A stretch of 32,000 nt of DNA, from the NCBI RefSeq assembly GCF_000015025.1, contig NC_008578.1, positions 2,250,001 to 2,282,000 of the forward strand, read 5' to 3'. The position numbers were made by a program, and so were the translations under genes. Numbering within the stretch: position 1 is the stretch's first letter; the number at the start of each line of letters is the position of its first letter. This DNA comes from Acidothermus cellulolyticus 11B (GTDB lineage: Bacteria > Actinomycetota > Actinomycetes > Acidothermales > Acidothermaceae). The notes beneath the pieces were generated by a model. The model was not told the origin of the DNA. It saw nothing but the letters and a program-made list of their open reading frames with translations, and did no database searches. This document shows positions 4,166 through 27,430 of this stretch, in pieces.

Positions 4166-4624
4166 TTACCATTCGGGTTCAGCGAATGCGGTGGCGGTCA
4201 CCGAGGAAATGCCTGAATGGTGAAGGAGCTCTGGCCCGATCCGGGCTTGCACGACCACCTCGATGAGCTGAGGGGTATCCGGATCCGTCGGATCGACCCG
4301 TCGTGTGAGAAGCACACTCGCACCGGACGGCGCCGCGAGCCGGGCGGCTGCGACTGCTAGGGAATCGGGCTCCCCGCGTGCCGCAGCTCGGGCGCCGGCC
4401 CGCGCCGCATCGATGACCCGGATCTGCGCGATACCGACGGCGACCGCCCACAGGATGAAGGTGAGGATGAGGGCGACCACCGGCAACGCGACCGCGGTTT
4501 CGGCGGTGACGAAGCCTGCAGACGTCGGCGTACCGACGCCGATGTTGACGAGTTCGATGCCTTCCAGGCGTCTGTCACGACGCCTGGTCACCAACCGGTA
4601 CCAAAATCCGCTGCGTCCTTGCAT
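4166..4624 (-). CDS. TadE-family pilus-assembly/minor-pilin-like protein (Rv3655c-like)
   Basis: The track ORF 4166-5182 is over-extended across flp and tadC. Trimmed to the ATG at 4624 (152 aa). It contains the TadE-type N-terminal motif GFVTAETAVALPVVALILTFILW. The start is uncertain. Confidence 0.7.
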   Translation of the reverse strand: MQGRSGFWYRLVTRRRDRRLEGIELVNIGVGTPTSAGFVTAETAVALPVVALILTFILWAVAVGIAQIRVIDAARAGARAAARGEPDSLAVAAARLAAPSGASVLLTRRVDPTDPDTPQLIEVVVQARIGPELLHHSGISSVTATAFAEPEW

Positions 4625-4650
4625 GCCAGACCAACCGCTTTCACTCGAAA

Positions 4651-4911
4651 CTAGAACGGAGCCTTGAGCGCACGCGTCACCAGACCGGTCAGCAGTTGCA
4701 GCACCGTGCTGCTCGTCACGACTTTGTACAGCAACGCAGCAAAGGCACATGCCGCCAGGGTGCCGATGGCGTATTCGGCTGTTGACATGCCTGCGTCGTG
4801 CATGGCCCTGCACCGCACCACCCGCTTGAGAAGCGCGACGGACCTGCATCGCACGGGCGACCGTCGAAGATGCTGAGACATGAGCCGAAATGCTCCGATG
4901 ACAGTCGACAT
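4651..4911 (-). CDS. flp: Flp-family prepilin-like protein (DUF4244, Rv3656c-like)
   Basis: 86 aa. Flp processing signature G/XXXXEY is present as AG|MSTAEY, followed by the hydrophobic helix AIGTLAACAFAALLYKVV. The ATG at 4911 is preceded by GGAGGAGGA with a 3-nt spacer. Confidence 0.75.
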   Translation of the reverse strand: MSTVIGAFRLMSQHLRRSPVRCRSVALLKRVVRCRAMHDAGMSTAEYAIGTLAACAFAALLYKVVTSSTVLQLLTGLVTRALKAPF

Positions 4912-5046
4912 CGTTCCTCCTCCGGTGCAAAAGTTCCGTCTTACGACGACGCGTCCAGCATTCCAACCCGCGGCGACATACGGCGTTCTTGATGCATAGG
5001 CCGTGGATGCTGCGCCCGTACGTTGTGGAAACGCTGCGCCACGCGA

Positions 5047-5658
5047 TTACCGCGGCCAGAGTGAATGCGCAAAACCAAAGATGACCGGCAGAACGCCGAC
5101 CAGAAGAAATGCCGGTAAGAAACACACACCAAGGGGCAGCGCCATCCGTACGCCCGCCCGGGCGGTGGCCTGCGCCGCCCACGCTCGAACCGTCCGGCGC
5201 CGTTCGTCAGCCAGCCGCGTCAATGTGCCGGCAAGGGCAAGGCCCGAGTTCTCCGCTTGTCCAAATGCCCGCGCGACCTCGGTCCAGCCGAGTTCGGCCG
5301 GCACCTCGGCCCACGCTTGCACCGCAGACGCGCCGAGCCGAAGCGCGCTGGATACCGCGGGAAGGGGCGTGTTGAGACTGTCACGACCCAACGCCTCGAC
5401 AACAAGCTCCAACGCCCGCCGACTGGTCACACCCGTTTCGAGACAAGCGGCAAGAAGGTCACACGCGAGAGGAAGAAGATCACCGGTAACCGCAGGAGAT
5501 CGTCGTGCTCGCGTCAGGACCTGTCGCCGTGGCCGGCCGGCATTCCACCGAAATCCCGGTGCAGCCAGCCGTCGGTGCATGCGTTTACGTGCGTCGCCGC
5601 CGGCGGCCGCGCATCCGAGGCCGATGAGAAACAGCCACAAGAAGATATCGGTCCGCAT
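5047..5658 (-). CDS. tadC: Type II secretion system F-family protein (TadC-like, Rv3657c-like)
   Basis: 203 aa. N- and C-terminal TM segments flank a T2SSF-like helical region. Its start lies 1 nt after the tadB stop. Confidence 0.75.
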   Translation of the reverse strand: MRTDIFLWLFLIGLGCAAAGGDARKRMHRRLAAPGFRWNAGRPRRQVLTRARRSPAVTGDLLPLACDLLAACLETGVTSRRALELVVEALGRDSLNTPLPAVSSALRLGASAVQAWAEVPAELGWTEVARAFGQAENSGLALAGTLTRLADERRRTVRAWAAQATARAGVRMALPLGVCFLPAFLLVGVLPVIFGFAHSLWPR

Positions 5659-5659
5659 G

Positions 5660-6478
5660 TCAGTGGTGCTGGAGAGTCGCCGCAGAATAGATGCGGGCCG
5701 CGATGCGCCGACACCACAGCAGGCCGCCGACTTCCAGAGCCACAGCTGCGCTCAGGCAGGCCAGACCAAGCGGGTGCCGGAACAAAAATTGCCAAGACGC
5801 GACGCCAATGACCGTGCCGAAGAGAAGACCGGCGATCGGCAGCGCACCGAGGAGCCGGATGGTGGCACGGGGCGCAGCGAGCGCGGTCTGCACCTCCTGG
5901 TGGAGGTCCACATCGGCTTGGATCGCATTCGCTGTCCGCTCGACCAGCCGAGCAAGACCCGCTCCGCTCTCGACACCGATCCGCCAGCACGGTGCGTAAC
6001 GCGCCAGATCGGCAAGCGGCGGGCCGCCGATTTTTGCCGTGGGTGTCACAAAAAGTTCGGTGACGCGGTCGATATCCCCGTGGCGCGCGGCGTCCGCAAT
6101 AGCAACGAACAGCCGAGCCAGCGCAGGGTGGTGCATCTCGCCGGCGGCCGCAGCCAACGCATCTGCCGGTACCCGCCCGGATCGCAACTGCGCAGCCCAC
6201 ACATGCCCAAATCGGACGAGTTCCGCCTTGACCGTTCTGCGGAGCTGACGCTGCACGCGCCGTGTCGCCCAGCCGACGGTTCCACCAGCGAACGCGCCGA
6301 TCACTGCTGCGGGAATGACGCCCACGACGAGGATGAGCCACACGAGAAACAGCGCCGCCGCCATCGGCAACGCATAACGGCGGGGCTGACCGCGCGCCGT
6401 TCGCGGCGCGCGACGTGAACCAGTCGTTGCACTGAGGACGGCCGCGCCAACCAAGCCCCCGATGACCCACGGGTTCAT
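5660..6478 (-). CDS. tadB: Type II secretion system F-family protein (TadB-like, Rv3658c-like)
   Basis: 272 aa polytopic membrane protein. ATGA overlap with the tadA stop at 6475-6478. Confidence 0.75.
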   Translation of the reverse strand: MNPWVIGGLVGAAVLSATTGSRRAPRTARGQPRRYALPMAAALFLVWLILVVGVIPAAVIGAFAGGTVGWATRRVQRQLRRTVKAELVRFGHVWAAQLRSGRVPADALAAAAGEMHHPALARLFVAIADAARHGDIDRVTELFVTPTAKIGGPPLADLARYAPCWRIGVESGAGLARLVERTANAIQADVDLHQEVQTALAAPRATIRLLGALPIAGLLFGTVIGVASWQFLFRHPLGLACLSAAVALEVGGLLWCRRIAARIYSAATLQHH

Positions 6479-7656
6479 GACACCGCCACGTGCGCGCCCA
6501 ACCAGTTCTCCAACACCCCAACGCCTCGGCCGCGCCAGAACTGCGTACCAGCCACCCCCACCGCAGGCACGACCGTCACCAGACCGTCACGGCGACGCTG
6601 CACAATTCCAATCGCCGACACCGTACGCACGCCAGCCGCATCCCGGACGATGTGAATCACGGCGCGTAGTCCGGCGGCAATGTGGCTGTGCACTGCAGCC
6701 CGACGCATCCCGCCAACCATCGCCAGAGCCTCCAGGCGGGCCGGAACATCCTCCGGCGAATTAGCGTGCAGCGTACCCGCACAGCCGTCGTGGCCGACGT
6801 TCAGCGCAGCGAGAAGGTCGATGCATTCAGTACCGCGTACCTCACCGATCACGATGCGGTCCGGCCGCATCCGGAGGGCTTCGCGAACCAATTGCCGCAC
6901 GCTGACGGCACCGGCGCCTTCGGCATTGGCGGGGCGCGCCTGCAGGCGGACAACGTGACGGTGAATTGTTTGGATTTCGGGCACGTCCTCAACGAGGACG
7001 ACCCGCTCTCTCGGGTGAACCAAACCGAGGAGGCAGCCAAGCAGCGTCGTTTTCCCGCTGCCGGTCGCGCCGCTGACAAGGAAGGAAATCCGGTTCGCCA
7101 CGAGCGCCTGTAAATACGGCGCAAGGCGCGGATCAATCGTCCGGCTCTCGACGAATTCCGTGAACCGAAACGGGCGACGACTAGGAACCCGAAACGATAG
7201 GTGCGTGCTGGTGGAAATCGGTGGGAGAACGGCGTGCATGCGAACCCCGTTCGGTAGCCGGACGTCGACACACGGCGCCGCCTCATCGAGCCGACGTCCA
7301 GCGGCGGCTGCCAGCCGGACGGCTAGTCGCCGTACGTCGGCGTCGCAACCGAGGTCGACGTCGACACGCTGCAGACCTGTTCCACGGTCAACCCACACCT
7401 CATCTGGTCCATTGACCAACACGTCCGTCACACCAGACGAGGCGAACAGCGGTTCAAGGACGCCGGCTCCGGAGATATCGGCGAACACCGCCTCAGCAGC
7501 CGCAAGAACACCCCGGACGCCAAGTGTTGGGGCGGCGCCTTCAGAGACCAGGGCATGGGCGACCTGAGCGCGGGAGATCGGGGCGTGCGCGGCGGCGAGG
7601 CGCAGCCGAACGGATCGGGTCAACGCCTCGGTCGCTGTCGGGGTCGATGTGGTCAT
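6475..7656 (-). CDS. tadA: TadA/CpaF-family secretion ATPase (helicase/secretion neighbourhood ATPase, Rv3659c-like)
   Basis: Walker A GATGSGKTTLL, VLVEDVPE (Asp box / Walker B region) and GHDGCAGTLHANS (His box). The ATG at 7656 forms an ATGA overlap with the ssd stop. An alternative GTG lies at 7674. Confidence 0.9.
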   Translation of the reverse strand: MTTSTPTATEALTRSVRLRLAAAHAPISRAQVAHALVSEGAAPTLGVRGVLAAAEAVFADISGAGVLEPLFASSGVTDVLVNGPDEVWVDRGTGLQRVDVDLGCDADVRRLAVRLAAAAGRRLDEAAPCVDVRLPNGVRMHAVLPPISTSTHLSFRVPSRRPFRFTEFVESRTIDPRLAPYLQALVANRISFLVSGATGSGKTTLLGCLLGLVHPRERVVLVEDVPEIQTIHRHVVRLQARPANAEGAGAVSVRQLVREALRMRPDRIVIGEVRGTECIDLLAALNVGHDGCAGTLHANSPEDVPARLEALAMVGGMRRAAVHSHIAAGLRAVIHIVRDAAGVRTVSAIGIVQRRRDGLVTVVPAVGVAGTQFWRGRGVGVLENWLGAHVAVS

Positions 7657-8810
7657 TGCGCCACGGCCTGCCACCGTGCAGCGAGCGGACCCGGACGCGT
7701 GGTCACCACCGCGGCCGCAATCCGCTGCAGGAGATGCGCACAGAGCCGCGCCAGCGCGCCCATGCCGGACGCACCCGGCGCCTCGCCCCGCTGCGCAGCG
7801 GCGACGAGCCGGGCTTCGTGTCGAACTTCACCCAGCCACGGAACGCCCAGGAGCCCGGCGATCTCCGGTCCACTCAGAGCGGCAGTCCGGCGTCGGGTGA
7901 CCACCCAGACGCGACCGCCCAACCGAGGGAGAAAAGCACGGGCCGCCGCGATCCCGCGAACGTCATCAGGCACGACGGCCAGCGTCACCTCAGAGTCGGG
8001 AAACGATCGCGGCGGAGCGGGCGCCGCCGCGCTGGCCTGCCCGCATTCATACCGCGGCAGATCGAAGACGAGAAGGTCGTTGCATCGACTCAGCGCTCCG
8101 ATCACCTGCGGGACGACCGGCTCGCTCATCGCGGTGAACCGCGACGGACTATGGCTCAGCACAACGAGATCGTCAAGCCGCGGCAACTGGTCACGCAACG
8201 CGCCCGCGGGCAGCCGTCCCTCGGCGCCCGTGAGATCGGCCCACCGGAGGCCCCGCGCTCCCTCTCCGCCGAAGAGCAGGTCGATGCCACCGCCCCACGG
8301 ATCGGCATCCACAAGTGCGGTGCGAATGCCATGCCGTCCCGCGACGGTCGCTAATCCGGCGGCCAATGTCGTCGCACCGCACCCACCGACGACCCCGGTA
8401 ATCGCGACGCTGACCGCGCGCGGGGGTCCTTCGAGGACGTCGGCGAGTTGTTCGCTGAGCCATGGTTCCGCCGTCGGCAACGCCGCGATGTGCTCAGCAC
8501 CCACAACGACCGCACGCTGCCAGGCATCCATCGCCGGCTCGCCCTGGACGACCAGAACGACCGCCGGCCTACGCGGCAGCGACCGCGCAACCTGATCAGT
8601 GACCTGCGCGGCATCCAGGATGATCAATGGAGCGTCCGTCCAGCGGTCCCGCGCGGCCACCAGATCAGGAGCAACATCCAGTTCGGTTCCTGTCGCGGCG
8701 GCAATCCGCAGCAGGTCATCGAGGAGTTGCTCAGAGCCGGTAATGACGAGCGGACGGCGGGGCCGCACGTCGAAGGCTTGCTCCGGCACCCACTGAGCCG
8801 ATGACGGCAT
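7653..8810 (-). CDS. ssd: Septum-site-determining / CpaE-like protein (Ssd, Rv3660c-like)
   Basis: The track ORF 7653-9269 is over-extended. Trimmed to the ATG at 8810 (385 aa). It has a receiver-like N-terminal domain plus a deviant ParA/MinD P-loop, ITGVVGGCGATTLAAGLA. Confidence 0.85.
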   Translation of the reverse strand: MPSSAQWVPEQAFDVRPRRPLVITGSEQLLDDLLRIAAATGTELDVAPDLVAARDRWTDAPLIILDAAQVTDQVARSLPRRPAVVLVVQGEPAMDAWQRAVVVGAEHIAALPTAEPWLSEQLADVLEGPPRAVSVAITGVVGGCGATTLAAGLATVAGRHGIRTALVDADPWGGGIDLLFGGEGARGLRWADLTGAEGRLPAGALRDQLPRLDDLVVLSHSPSRFTAMSEPVVPQVIGALSRCNDLLVFDLPRYECGQASAAAPAPPRSFPDSEVTLAVVPDDVRGIAAARAFLPRLGGRVWVVTRRRTAALSGPEIAGLLGVPWLGEVRHEARLVAAAQRGEAPGASGMGALARLCAHLLQRIAAAVVTTRPGPLAARWQAVAQ

Positions 8811-9104
8811 CCCACGCGGGCGCTCGTCGCCAATGGGATCAGCTGTGGTGTTCCAGATGGTCACGACGCCCCATTTCGGTGAGATCCGTGATTTCCGCTC
8901 TCGCACCTGGAGTCTTTCTGACGTGGATGGCGATCGGCCGCGGATCACACCATGCTGTGGACGGTCTCCATCGCAGTTGTGGACGGCAATGCACGCGCAG
9001 AGCCGGGATTGGGGCAGCAGCGGAAACGCGATCGCACAGCAGGGCAGACGCAGGACGCACAGAGACCGGACGGACAGCCGGCACAGAAACGCCAACATCG
9101 CCGG

Positions 9105-9232
9105 CGAAAACGCGCACAAAAGGAGTGGCCCCCGCCGGGGGGGTAGCGGGGGCCACTGCCCGGTACGGCTCTGGGGGGAAGAGCCGCACCCCCAACACGG
9201 TAACGCTTCCGGGGATGAACGCAACCCCGGAC
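9105..9232 (-). ncRNA. 6C-type small RNA (Rfam 6C; equivalent of M. tuberculosis B11/ncRv13660c)
   Basis: On the minus strand there are three hairpins. Hairpin 1 is TCCGGGG/CCCCGGA (9208-9230). Hairpin 2 is GGCUCU-UCCCCCC-AGAGCC (9167-9185). Hairpin 3 is GUGGCCCCCGC-UACCCCCCCG-GCGGGGGCCAC (9125-9156), followed by UCCUUUUGUGCGCGUUUUC. Two C-rich loops plus a position just upstream of ssd on the same strand match what is known of 6C. The ends are approximate. Confidence 0.7.
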
Positions 9233-9511
9233 ACGCATCGAATTCCCAGGACCCGGGTGGCGCAACCACAAATCGTCAAGATTTTTGCCGATCGCTCCGG
9301 ATTCGTCGCAACCTTTCCCCGAATGACCCTTCCGATCAACGCCGGTGGGGAGTACAAACAACGTCAGGAGCTACGCACTCCGCCCGCGGTACCCACGCGG
9401 GGCTTGGACCGTCTCAGGCCGTCGCAGGGGCAGCCTCGGGCTCTCCTCGACGTGACGAGTGCACGCTTGGTAACCCGGGCGGAGTGCGAGCTTCATGATT
9501 TTTCTGCCGTG

Positions 9512-19375: not shown

Positions 19376-20167
19376 TCACCGCAGGGCGTCAACCGGGCCG
19401 GTCTTGACGAGTTTTGCCGCCTCGACGGGGTCGGTAGGGCCGATCCCGTACGACGGGCACAACCGCGCAAGGCCGCACGCGCCGCACGCCGGTTTCCGGG
19501 CATGACACACCCGGCGTCCATGCCAGATCATCCGGTGGGAGAGCGCGGTCCACTCCTCGCGGGGAATAAGCGCCGCAATCTCCTGCTCAACGACAACCGG
19601 ATCATTCGACGTCGTCCAGCCGAACCGCTTGGCCAGTCGCAGCACGTGCGTATCGACGGTGATCCCCGGGATGCCGAACGCCGTGCCGAGAACAACATTC
19701 GCCGTCTTGCGCCCGACACCCGGCAGAGTGACGAGGTCGTCCAGGCGGTCCGGAACCTCACCGCCGAACCGCTCGCAGAGTGCCTGTGCCATGCCGATGA
19801 TGGCGGCTGTCTTGTTGCGATAGAAGCCGGTGGAGGCGATGAGCTTCTCCAATTCGGCGCGATCGGCGGCCGCGTAATCCGCAGCACTGCGGTATTTGGC
19901 GAACAATGCGGGGGTCACCATGTTGACCCGCTGGTCCGTGCACTGCGCAGACAGGATCGTGGCCACCAGAAGTTCCAGCGGGTTGGAGAAATTCAGCTCG
20001 CAGTGCGCATCGGGGTACAGCTCGGCAAGCGCCTTCGCGATCGCCCGGGCCTGGCGGACCCGGGCCCGGTCCGGCGGAGCGGAGGATTGCCCTTTGCCAC
20101 GGACGGCGGTCCCGCGGCTCGCCGCGGCACGCGTCGCCGCGGTCCGATTGACGCTGGTGGAAACCAC
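19376..20167 (-). CDS. nth: Endonuclease III (DNA glycosylase / AP lyase)
   Basis: HhH-GPD motif [13 protein letters not shown] and 4Fe-4S cluster loop [17 protein letters not shown]. The track ORF to 20947 is over-extended. A GTG at 20167 is proposed (263 aa), but the start is uncertain. Confidence 0.9.
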
Positions 20168-20278
20168 GAATTGCAGCCTAGACGGCTGGGACGAGCCGAT
20201 CTCAGCCTCGGGTGACCATCGGCCGGTGAACGGAGCAATTCCGCTGTCCGGGTGACATGCCGATGATGCGCCGATCGG

Positions 20279-20944
20279 GTGCTCAAGCGGTTCCGAGAGG
20301 CCGCCGATCCCGGCAAGGGAACGGGGCGACAGCAGGATCGCCGACTCTTTGACCCGACCCAGAGACGGAGCGACGTGAGCGCGGAACGTGTGGCCGGACG
20401 GACCCGACCATCGGCGTCCACCCCGCAGAACACCGCCCGGTCGCACACTCCGCAACGGAACCCCAATTTCGACCATCTCTCGCTTCACGATTTGCGTGCC
20501 TACCGGCAGGCCCTCGTCGAGGAGGAGGACCGCGTCTCGTACTGGCGGCGCATCATCCAAGCACGGCTCGATCTCGTGCGTGCCGGCGAAGCAGGTGAGA
20601 TCAACACGGCGGCGGTCCGCCACGTTCTCGCGGAAGCGCGGCTGGACGCCGGCCGTAGGGCGTTGATCCGCATCCTGCCGAACGACGACATGCCCCCGCT
20701 GCCAAACTTGGACCGCCTTTGGGAGCGGCAGCCCCGACCGGGGGACACCCGCTACAACGAGATGCTGGCCCGGGAACTCGCCGGAGCGGAGATCCAACTC
20801 TCTGCGTACCGTGCCGCCCTGCATCGGCGAATCGAGGCCGCCACCAAGGAATTGATTGCCCGCTACCGCGAAGATCCCAGCCTCTGCCTGCTCGCCCTCC
20901 CCGTCGAACCGGCCCAGATGCGCGAACGCCGACGCCCGGTGTGA
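20279..20944 (+). CDS. Coiled-coil protein with an RsiG-like c-di-GMP-binding signature (putative anti-sigma factor of the RsiG family)
   Basis: Residues 83-98, [16 protein letters not shown], fit E(X)3S(X)2R(X)3Q(X)3D exactly. Residues 171-186, [16 protein letters not shown], form a second copy with Q->H and D->E. The N-terminal 65 aa are disordered and the start is uncertain. The functional call is an inference. Confidence 0.5.
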
Positions 20945-20955
20945 CAATCACCCAC

Positions 20956-21630
20956 ATGGACGACGTGCTCAGCGGTTTACCGCTGTTCGCCGCCCTCGAT
21001 GAAGAGGCGGACACCGCCTTGCGCCAAGCGATGTCCTACGAGCGGTTCGCGCGCGGCCAGGTGATTTTCAACGAGGGTGATCCCGGCGACAAGTTGTACG
21101 CAATCATCGAAGGCAAGGTCAAACTCGCCCGCACAGCGCCGGACGGCAGGGAGAACCTGCAAGCCGTCCTGGGGCCAGGAGAGATGTTCGGTGAGCTCTC
21201 GCTCTTTGACCCTAAGCCGCGTACCGCCGGTGCGATCGCGGTGACCGATGCCGTCTTGGCATCGCTGGCGCACGACGCTCTGCGCCCGTGGCTGACCGGC
21301 CGTCCCGACGTGGCGATGCAGCTGCTCCGCGCCCTCGCCCAGCGGTTGCGCCGGACCAACGACGTACTCGCCGATCTGGTCTTCTCCGACGTCCCCGCCA
21401 GGGTGGCCAAGGCTCTCCTCGGGTTGGCGGAACGTTTTGGCGAAGAGACACCGGAGGGGTTGTACGTCGCGCACGACCTCACCCAGGAGGAACTTGCGCA
21501 GATGGTCGGTGCGTCTCGCGAGACAGTCAATAAAGCGCTGGCGGACTTCGCGAACCGCGGCTGGCTGCGGGTCGAACCACGCGCCGTCCTCATCAAGGAC
21601 CTTGACGGCCTGACCCGCCGCGCAAAATAA
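20956..21630 (+). CDS. crp: cAMP receptor protein, Crp/Fnr-family transcriptional regulator (Rv3676-like)
   Basis: 224 aa from the ATG at 20956. cNMP-binding motif GEMFGELSLFD..PRTA and C-terminal HTH TQEELAQMVGASRETVNKAL. The track start at 20719 is over-extended. Confidence 0.95.
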   Translation: MDDVLSGLPLFAALDEEADTALRQAMSYERFARGQVIFNEGDPGDKLYAIIEGKVKLARTAPDGRENLQAVLGPGEMFGELSLFDPKPRTAGAIAVTDAVLASLAHDALRPWLTGRPDVAMQLLRALAQRLRRTNDVLADLVFSDVPARVAKALLGLAERFGEETPEGLYVAHDLTQEELAQMVGASRETVNKALADFANRGWLRVEPRAVLIKDLDGLTRRAK

Positions 21631-21657: not shown

Positions 21658-21870
21658 ATGTCCGTCATCACGTCATTCATGCTGTCCCCGGTGTTCGGCG
21701 TGCTCACGCTACTGATCATAGGTCCCCTCGGATTCATTTTGAGCCTCATCTACTGGCGTCTGCTGATGGAATTCTTCGTCGCCTTCTTCCGTATCCACGA
21801 CCAACTCAACGTCATCGCACAAAAGATGACCGAGACTCCGGTCAGCGCCATGACAGCGGCGCAAGGCTGA
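21658..21870 (+). CDS. Small two-TM membrane protein, DUF4282-like
   Basis: 70 aa. Two hydrophobic helices and a WRLLMEFFVAFFRIHDQL segment resembling the DUF4282 C-terminal motif. Third codon positions are mostly G/C despite the low overall GC. A strong hairpin follows. Confidence 0.55.
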   Translation: MSVITSFMLSPVFGVLTLLIIGPLGFILSLIYWRLLMEFFVAFFRIHDQLNVIAQKMTETPVSAMTAAQG

Positions 21871-26911: not shown

Positions 26912-27220
26912 TCAGCTCGCTGCAGAGACGCCGTCACGATGGCTGCGTTCGAAATCCTCCATCGCTGCGGCAAGCAGGCGGCGCCACGACGTCACGTTGG
27001 GCCGGCGGCGGAGCAACGCGCGCCGCTCCCGTTCCGTCAAACCGCCCCACACCCCGAATTCCACCCGATTGTCCAGCGCATCGGCCAGGCACTCGGCCCG
27101 CACCGGGCACCGGTAGCAGATCGCCTTTGCCCGGTTCTGCGCCGCACCCTGCACGAACAATGCGTCCGGATCGACATTCCGGCAGGCCGCATACGCCGCC
27201 CAGTCTTTGATCCACGCCAT
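26912..27220 (-). CDS. whiB4: WhiB-family Fe-S transcription factor (WhiB4/WblA orthologue by sequence and synteny)
   Basis: C-X-C-X2-C-X5-C cysteines (ACRNVDPDALF...AICYRCPVRAEC) and the GVWGG turn. There is strong similarity to remembered Mtb WhiB4 (DPDELFVRGAAQ...DALDNKVEFGVWGG). The ATG at 27220 is preferred over 27259. Confidence 0.9.
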   Translation of the reverse strand: MAWIKDWAAYAACRNVDPDALFVQGAAQNRAKAICYRCPVRAECLADALDNRVEFGVWGGLTERERRALLRRRPNVTSWRRLLAAAMEDFERSHRDGVSAAS

Positions 27221-27430
27221 GATCGCCCCGTTCCGTCCACCGGCGCGGCGAGCGCCCACAGCAACCCGTCAACGCCTACCCCCCTTGGTGCACATCGCCG
27301 GCTGCACCTGCACAACCGCCCGATGTGTTCTTCGACGGTAGAGAAGATGCGGACGGCGGACCAGACTCCGTTCGGCCCATTTCCCGGTGGTCCATGCGGA
27401 CCATACCCTCCGTGACCGGCTGGCCACGCG

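Follow-up and report, generated by a model that had tools for sequence, protein, structure and literature searches.

We analyzed a 32,000-nucleotide (nt) stretch of the genome of Acidothermus cellulolyticus 11B (contig NC_008578.1, positions 2,250,001 to 2,282,000 of the forward strand), hereafter the window, in whose own coordinates all positions are given. Between nth, which encodes endonuclease III, and crp, the window carries a plus-strand gene whose product resembles RsiG, the anti-sigma factor that is armed by cyclic di-GMP (c-di-GMP) and acts on the sigma factor WhiG. A first-pass annotation, made from the sequence alone, had described the protein as an RsiG-family member with one intact and one divergent c-di-GMP-binding motif. 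The data below indicate that it is almost certainly a real, diverged member of this family, that it belongs to a distinct subfamily, and that its gene lies behind a conserved element resembling a WhiG-type promoter.

The maximal open reading frame (ORF) runs from 20279 to 20944 and encodes 221 amino acids; residue numbers refer to this ORF unless the 189-residue numbering is stated. The gene had initially been started at 20279, which is probably wrong, since 20279 marks no more than the earliest start that the maximal ORF allows and a promoter-like motif (20282 to 20310) falls inside this ORF. Because this motif recurs in 76 of 83 related loci without a fixed reading frame, the coding sequence most likely starts at the GTG at 20375, spans 20375 to 20944 and encodes 189 amino acids. 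The public gene call (P0001; 189 amino acids, 100% identical to the window protein) begins at the same GTG, a GGAG stands ahead of it at 20367 to 20370, and the homologues, like P0001, begin at the equivalent position. In an alignment of 34 sequences, the first 32 codons of the maximal ORF had no counterpart in the homologues. The gene ends with a TGA at 20942 to 20944, and the gap to the ATG of crp at 20956 is 11 nt, as first annotated.

Residues 60 to 112 matched the Pfam family PF22802 (RsiG-like) with 56.2 bits (E = 2.7e-15; gathering cutoff, 27); NCBIfam gave no match. Among PDB sequences, the best phmmer hit was RsiG of Streptomyces venezuelae, hereafter RsiG(Sv) (6PFJ/6PFV; E = 6.8e-5, residues 48 to 199), in an alignment that covered both long helices and kept both motifs in register. 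The RsiG of Rubrobacter radiotolerans was recovered through three entries, 7LQ2 to 7LQ4, at E values of about 1e-3, and pairwise BLASTP with RsiG(Sv) gave 30% identity over 171 amino acids (E = 4e-9). The similarity to the two characterized proteins that the first-pass annotation had expected is thus significant. A large protein collection contained 1683 homologues, with PF22802 present in all 120 among those listed, and a library clustered at 50% identity yielded 710 representative clusters at E ≤ 1e-3, 125 of them at E ≤ 1e-30. As to nomenclature, RsiG proteins of Streptomyces are often named "ABC transporter substrate-binding protein" at NCBI, which looks like an annotation error; UniRef lists them as "RsiG family protein."

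An AlphaFold2 model built with 34 homologues as input had a mean predicted local distance difference test score of 77, with most of the two long helices (residues 69 to 103 and 157 to 198) above 90. The remaining helices were predicted at residues 111 to 118, 123 to 130, 144 to 149 and 201 to 206, a layout that corresponds to alpha-1 to alpha-6 of RsiG, with two long helices, three short ones between them and one short C-terminal helix. In a Foldseek search of the PDB, ranks 1 to 3 were taken by RsiG(Sv) chains (probabilities of 1.0, 1.0 and 0.92). Modeled alone, the protein is therefore predicted to have the RsiG-type arrangement, a judgment made on helix layout, the template modeling (TM) scores being only 0.37 to 0.48.

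Motif 1 (20525 to 20572; residues E83-D98, helix 1) matches the signature E(X)3S(X)2R(X)3Q(X)3D exactly and aligned to motif 1 of RsiG from both S. venezuelae and R. radiotolerans. Motif 2 (20789 to 20836; residues E171-E186, helix 5) aligned to E162-D177 of RsiG(Sv); it keeps E, S and R and has His in place of Gln and Glu in place of Asp, and translation confirmed both motifs as they had been reported. In the 189-residue numbering, they correspond to E51-D66 and E139-E154. The copy of the signature on helix alpha-5 thus has four of five positions in acceptable form, with His for Gln and Glu as the final residue in place of Asp. Exchange of Gln for His is a published, permitted substitution, equivalent for base stacking, which was reported for motif 1. 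Across the 34 homologues, with a mean column identity of 52%, E83, S87, R90, Q94, D98, E171, S175, R178 and H182 were invariant, and position 186 was occupied by E, T, S, G or A but never by D. The invariance of these nine residues at such a mean identity, together with the passing of the Pfam cutoff, indicates that the motif is more than a chance match.

The divergent motif 2 had been taken as a possible evolutionary intermediate, and this part of the earlier interpretation did not hold. When 150 representatives of the wider subfamily were compared, the largest group (46 sequences) combined a Q..D motif 1 with an H..D motif 2, and D was the commonest residue at position 186; variants without this last Asp were concentrated among the highest-scoring relatives of the window protein. 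Because the wider subfamily is twin-motif and the loss of Asp is concentrated among close relatives of the window protein, whose subclade has lost only this residue, the protein does not stand between single- and twin-motif forms. Judged by these alignments, it is a twin-motif form minus one contact, that is, a product of derived partial degeneration. Nor does it belong to the single-motif homodimeric class of the Rubrobacteria/Thermoleophilia type, since it has 189 to 221 amino acids and a second homologous helix that aligned to alpha-5 of RsiG(Sv).

Some lower-scoring members of the subfamily (among others P0184, P0191, P0205, P0214 and P0265, and 845 to 1435 of locus L083) carry Asp, Ala or Thr in place of the motif-1 Ser or have lost the Arg. 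They still keep an LP-x-LPDL..W linker and an ELIARYRE C terminus and, from their residues, may be ligand-independent derivatives. The gene for one of them, P0265, adjoins a CheX chemotaxis gene.

Residues that would contact the sigma factor are also retained. In RsiG(Sv), Tyr69 stacks on Tyr58 of WhiG, Arg54 and Arg57 contact Glu240 in sigma-4 of WhiG, and Ile183 and Tyr187 contact the sigma-4 surface. Their equivalents in the window protein, Y88, R73, R76, L192 and Y196, respectively, were all invariant in the 34-homologue alignment. Arg58 of RsiG(Sv) aligned with Q77, which is variable, and the WhiG contacts made from alpha-2 to alpha-4 could not be aligned to the window protein. The equivalent of the sigma-4 contact surface is a conserved C-terminal segment (20849 to 20902, plus strand) formed by the end of helix 5 and helix 6, and the best conserved stretch common to both proteins reads (I/L)A-x-RYRE. 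Between the short middle helices lies a subfamily-specific linker, D-x-PPLP-x-L-x3-W (D137-W148; 20687 to 20722, plus strand), in which D137, P139, P140, L141, P142, L144 and W148 are invariant and which is kept even in members with degenerate c-di-GMP motifs.

The promoter-like element on the plus strand consists of a -35 hexamer, CTCAAG (20282 to 20287), a 15-nt spacer and a -10 box, GCCGATCC (20303 to 20310). It has the form cTCAAG-N15-G(C/A)CGAT and can be read as TCAA-N16-GCCGATCC at 20283 to 20310, 65 nt upstream of the GTG at 20375. In both its boxes and its spacing, it fits the published WhiG2 promoter consensus, T(A/C)AA-N16-GCCGATAA, which has a conserved central CGA. Within 400 nt upstream of the gene, a strict pattern occurred in 43 of 83 related loci, at a density of 1.31 per kb, about 52 times that over the remainder of the 1.75 Mb of searched sequence (0.025 per kb). 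A relaxed pattern, T[CT]AA[GC]-N15-NNCGA, was present in 76 of the 83 loci, its background density being 0.11 per kb. Positions that the search had left free were still conserved in these 76 loci (C at -1 in 73, G at +20 in 74 and C at +27 in 67), and the 15-nt spacer was variable across loci. The phase of the motif relative to the reading frame was spread over the three frames (22, 28 and 26 loci), an in-frame stop codon lay between motif and gene in 38 of the 76 loci, and the first in-frame start codon followed the -10 box at a median distance of 28 nt. Since all three frames are used and in-frame stops intervene, the motif is non-coding, and it has the predicted anatomy of a sigma-28-family promoter. 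The same two observations exclude conservation of coding sequence or of a start context, which was considered because GCCGATGC contains an ATG that one gene caller had used. An ATG is found in a site of the GCCGATGC type in at most 46 of the 76 loci; the CGA core is universal. WhiG autoregulation and diguanylate cyclase and phosphodiesterase targets are described in the accessible portions of the RsiG/WhiG papers, which do not list rsiG among the targets.

Other strict WhiG-type matches in the window, at 4522, 11713 and 25025, lie inside coding regions at chance level, and a recurrent strict match inside crp of related loci stems from the conserved Crp peptide K-I-x-R-x-A-x-D-G and not from a promoter. 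A generic scan for sigma-70 promoters and terminators between 19900 and 21900 yielded nothing useful. The nth/rsiG intergenic region also contains repeated GGGTGA(C/T) boxes, two of them exact GGGTGAC copies (20210 to 20216 and 20250 to 20256), with variants at 20224 to 20231 and 20277 to 20282. A GGTGA box was present in 62 of the 76 loci, mostly at -11 or -12, -22, -32 or -43 nt from the T of the -35 box, which is roughly helical phasing. The reverse complement of GGGTGA(C/T) resembles the direct repeats to which OmpR-family regulators such as PhoP or MtrA bind.

Taking motifs, sigma-contact residues and promoter element together, we consider it fairly probable that the protein is a c-di-GMP-armed anti-sigma factor that sequesters a WhiG-type sigma factor and whose own gene is read from a WhiG-type promoter, in an FlgM-like feedback. 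The two long helices would form an antiparallel coiled coil binding a c-di-GMP dimer, to which motif 1 would make the full set of contacts and motif 2 would contribute E, S, R and a stacking His, without the base-reading Asp. The site would hence be expected to be asymmetric, with one base-reading contact weakened (Glu, in the window protein) or missing (in relatives). Once loaded with c-di-GMP, the protein would sequester the WhiG-type sigma factor of the genome, and transcription of the rsiG-like gene by this same sigma factor would create a c-di-GMP-gated negative feedback of the FliA/FlgM type. crp would be transcribed from its own, probably leaderless promoter and could also receive read-through across the 11 nt. 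Because the sigma-28-type motif is conserved upstream of the gene, genomes carrying it probably encode a WhiG/FliA-type sigma factor that would transcribe the gene for its own presumed anti-sigma factor.

The closest precedent for such a circuit is FliA/FlgM: in flagellated bacteria, the gene for the anti-sigma-28 factor is transcribed from a sigma-28-dependent promoter. Here too, an anti-sigma gene stands behind a promoter motif of the sigma family that its product should inhibit, which predicts homeostatic negative feedback. The protein is unrelated to FlgM in both sequence and fold; falling c-di-GMP, and not export through the flagellar apparatus, would act as the release signal, and promoter use is here inferred from sequence.

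Several observations weigh against this interpretation. The base-specifying Asp of motif 2 is missing across the subclade of the window protein (34 sequences), and since a quadruple mutant of S. venezuelae RsiG, in which both motif Arg and both motif Asp residues were replaced by Ala, did not bind c-di-GMP, the affinity or stoichiometry of binding may differ from that of RsiG(Sv). The loop of RsiG(Sv) that wraps around c-di-GMP is replaced by the PPLP linker, in a gapped part of the alignment that offers no clear counterpart, and the Foldseek figures are weak (E = 0.024, TM scores of 0.37 and 0.48, root mean square deviation of 9 Å). As regards the promoter, the window taken alone is at chance level (2 matches versus 1.8 expected), and the weight of the motif therefore rests entirely on its conservation across loci. 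The upstream region of S. venezuelae rsiG lacks a sigma-28-type motif. Finally, tblastn with E. coli FliA as the query found no sigma-28 gene in the window, in agreement with the first-pass annotation, or in 84 related loci.

The missing Asp also bears on a different interpretation, in which the protein is an RsiG-derived anti-sigma factor or adaptor with a changed nucleotide response, be it weak binding, an asymmetric site for a single ligand, recognition of another nucleotide or action without a ligand. In RsiG(Sv), the flipped-out guanines are recognized at their Watson-Crick face by two Asp residues, Gln residues stack on the bases, and base specificity is given by Arg together with Asp (Gallagher et al., 2020). 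Only one complete motif is present per monomer of the window protein, and the motif-2 Asp is absent from all 34 close homologues. Moreover, distant members lacking the Ser or the Arg of motif 1 retain both the PPLP linker and ELIARYRE, showing that the scaffold can persist without the signature. However, 9 of 10 motif residues are invariant despite about 50% divergence, which argues for continued selection on the ligand contacts, Glu186 keeps a carboxylate, and single-motif homodimeric RsiGs bind c-di-GMP despite the architectural change within the family. On balance, we regard a changed nucleotide response as unlikely.

Turning to the surroundings of the gene, nth occupies 19376 to about 20167 on the minus strand (TIGR01083, 269 bits; start approximate, GTG at 20167) and is divergent from the rsiG-like gene. 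Read by domains, the window begins with a helicase, Tad-type pilus genes, acs, a Na/H exchanger, SCO1, CtaG and a CvpA-trypsin protease, continues with DUF309, an alpha/beta hydrolase, NUDIX, a thioredoxin-like protein, nth, the rsiG-like gene, crp, DUF4282 and a metallo-beta-lactamase, and ends with NUDIX, YjgF, two ArsA-like ATPases, WhiB, a class A penicillin-binding protein (PBP) and a metallophosphatase. This is the order of Rv3670-Rv3683 in Mycobacterium tuberculosis. The Tad-type pilus cluster (4166 to 9269, minus strand) encodes TadE-like, T2SSF-type membrane, T2SSE-type ATPase and CbiA/ParA-like proteins and showed no convincing WhiG-type promoter, the strict match at 4522 to 4548 lying inside a coding region. 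A gene for a small DUF4282 protein (21658 to 21870, plus strand) directly follows crp. The WhiB-family gene (26912 to 27268, minus strand), flanked by the genes for the ArsA-like ATPases and for the class A PBP, is at a position that presumably matches whiB4 of M. tuberculosis.

Synteny was counted over the best 80 of 300 relatives that were confirmed in a scan of species-representative genomes. nth was upstream and divergent in 79 of the 80 loci and crp downstream in 74, and crp also follows distant members that are about 42 to 44% identical (P0273 in L081 and P0247 in L082). The position between nth and crp, noted in the first-pass annotation, is thus not only confirmed but kept among relatives near and far. 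The best 80 relatives all come from metagenome-assembled genomes (MAGs) labeled Acidothermaceae, Frankiaceae, Frankiales, Sporichthyaceae or "Mycobacteriales"; the closest named relative is an Acidothermus sp. MAG (81% identity), and a cluster look-up of distant family representatives returned almost only metagenome proteins. The window protein therefore represents a distinct RsiG subfamily whose members are frequent in uncultured actinobacteria resembling Acidothermaceae, Frankiaceae and Sporichthyaceae and whose gene has a fixed place between nth and crp. In a published survey, RsiG was found in 134 of 673 reference actinobacterial genomes; Frankia, Sporichthya and Mycobacterium had none, and A. 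cellulolyticus 11B was the only organism reported with a second copy, Acel_1994, besides the reciprocal best hit Acel_0065 (Schumacher et al., 2021; PMC8325347). Going by gene order only, Acel_1994 may be the crp-linked type. The crp linkage, the motif-2 difference and a WhiG-type promoter are not mentioned in that paper, in which "crp" has no occurrence.

The crp gene (20956 to 21630, plus strand) encodes a cNMP_binding domain (PF00027) and an HTH_Crp_2 domain (PF13545) and is 58 to 92% identical to the downstream gene in related loci. In the window it has no Shine-Dalgarno sequence, and an extended -10-like box, TGTGACAAT (20940 to 20948, plus strand), overlaps the stop codon of the rsiG-like gene and ends 7 nt before the crp ATG. 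The sequence GTGTGA[CG]AATCAC, followed after 3 to 4 nt by a start codon, was found in at least 15 of the Acidothermaceae-type loci L001 to L017, and the box is kept in relatives in which the rsiG-crp gap is roughly 65 to 155 nt. In other clades, the crp start is preceded by a GGAGG Shine-Dalgarno sequence or lies close to a -10-like hexamer of another kind. Since a Shine-Dalgarno sequence is absent and the -10-like box is conserved, crp probably has its own promoter, leaderless in the Acidothermaceae-type lineage, and would not have to rely on co-transcription. We infer that intergenic DNA has been lost, which left the two genes 11 nt apart in the window. The suggestion that the two genes might be co-transcribed thus stands in part: read-through into crp is possible because 11 nt leave no room for a terminator, but crp has a conserved extended -10-like box of its own. 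Across loci, the spacing ranges from 11 nt to nearly 1.8 kb, with genes inserted in some, which argues against an obligatory operon.

In one MAG, for instance, a PIG-L family deacetylase gene (L002, 7436 to 8137, plus strand) is inserted between the rsiG-like gene and crp. In another locus, crp adjoins a gene (L019, 7498 to 11040, minus strand) for a 1180-amino-acid protein that combines a class III adenylate/guanylate cyclase domain with an AAA ATPase domain and TPR repeats, so that a cyclase and Crp are paired locally beside the rsiG-like gene. Many Frankiaceae-type loci have a gap of about 3.5 kb between crp and the metallo-beta-lactamase gene, similar in size to the L019 insertion.

These arrangements bear on two further interpretations. 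In the first, the c-di-GMP/WhiG switch is wired to Crp through WhiG-driven read-through from rsiG into crp. WhiG activity, and hence the level of c-di-GMP, would then adjust Crp dosage on top of the leaderless crp promoter, the nth-rsiG-crp linkage would reflect cross-talk of two second-messenger systems and not inherited gene order, and the half-degenerate motif 2 would give an asymmetric c-di-GMP sensor of lower stoichiometry. We consider this combination quite doubtful. In the second, the main partner is not WhiG, and the linkage to crp marks a functional tie to Crp and cyclic AMP, the protein modulating, for example, Crp or another sigma factor. The adjacency is indeed kept down to about 42% identity (in S. 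venezuelae, where crp is not close by, rsiG is flanked instead by dtd and a gene for an Eis-like acetyltransferase), some clades have gained a class III cyclase gene beside crp, and no whiG was seen locally. Against this, the genes of the Rv3670-83-like block keep a very stable order in actinobacteria, so that the adjacency may simply be inherited; the spacing and inserted genes described above speak against a tight link; the conserved sigma-4 contact residues and the sigma-28-type promoter motif point to a WhiG-type partner; and a literature search for RsiG together with crp found no paper linking RsiG to Crp. A partner other than WhiG is, in our view, improbable.

There remains the trivial explanation that no real gene exists and that the motif matches arose by chance in a spurious ORF overlapping the minus-strand ORF at 19376 to 20947; high-GC DNA does yield long ORFs in several frames, a 523-amino-acid minus-strand ORF does overlap the region, and GC content at third codon positions separates the frames only weakly, but the 1683 homologues and 710 representative clusters with their strong conservation, the Pfam match above the cutoff, the invariance of the motifs and the conserved synteny rule this out, its probability being negligible. 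The endonuclease III model covers only the downstream part of the 523-amino-acid ORF, about 19376 to 20053, and the overlapping part is a mere upstream extension of nth.

We thus return to the interpretation as a c-di-GMP-armed anti-sigma factor, for which a close counterpart is RsiG(Sv) (vnz_19430), a monomeric, twin-motif anti-sigma factor of WhiG that is armed by c-di-GMP. The window protein shares with it the Pfam family, the arrangement of two long motif helices separated by three short ones and followed by a short C-terminal helix, a complete motif 1, the E, S and R of motif 2, the equivalents of the sigma-contact residues and (I/L)A-x-RYRE. It differs from it in sequence (30% identity), in a motif 2 with an invariant His for Gln and without Asp, in the presence of D-x-PPLP-x-L-x3-W in place of the c-di-GMP-wrapping loop, in the location of the gene at nth/crp and not at dtd/acetyltransferase, and in the sigma-28-type motif, which stands upstream of the window gene but not of S. 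venezuelae rsiG. With the single-motif homodimer of R. radiotolerans (7LQ2-7LQ4), it has in common an alignable motif-1 helix, comprising an LS..L lead-in and E..(I/V)SY.RR..Q.R.D; in contrast to that protein, it carries a second related helix in the same chain and is therefore of the twin-helix, monomer type. The protein is thus a variant form of a known kind, and the existing model of RsiG is not overturned.

According to the literature, no sigma/anti-sigma pair other than RsiG-WhiG is known to be under c-di-GMP control; work on it has covered Streptomyces, Rubrobacter and a Geodermatophilus pair. The subfamily described here is set apart by its fixed adjacency to crp, a different conserved linker, the loss of the motif-2 Asp in one subclade and a WhiG-type promoter motif. 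The last of these predicts an autoregulatory feedback that the accessible portions of the RsiG/WhiG literature do not describe for rsiG. If our interpretation is true, the window protein would be a natural "one-and-a-half-motif" variant with which to ask how many base-specific contacts c-di-GMP recognition needs, and its locus would offer a concrete place to look for regulatory coupling between c-di-GMP and cyclic AMP.

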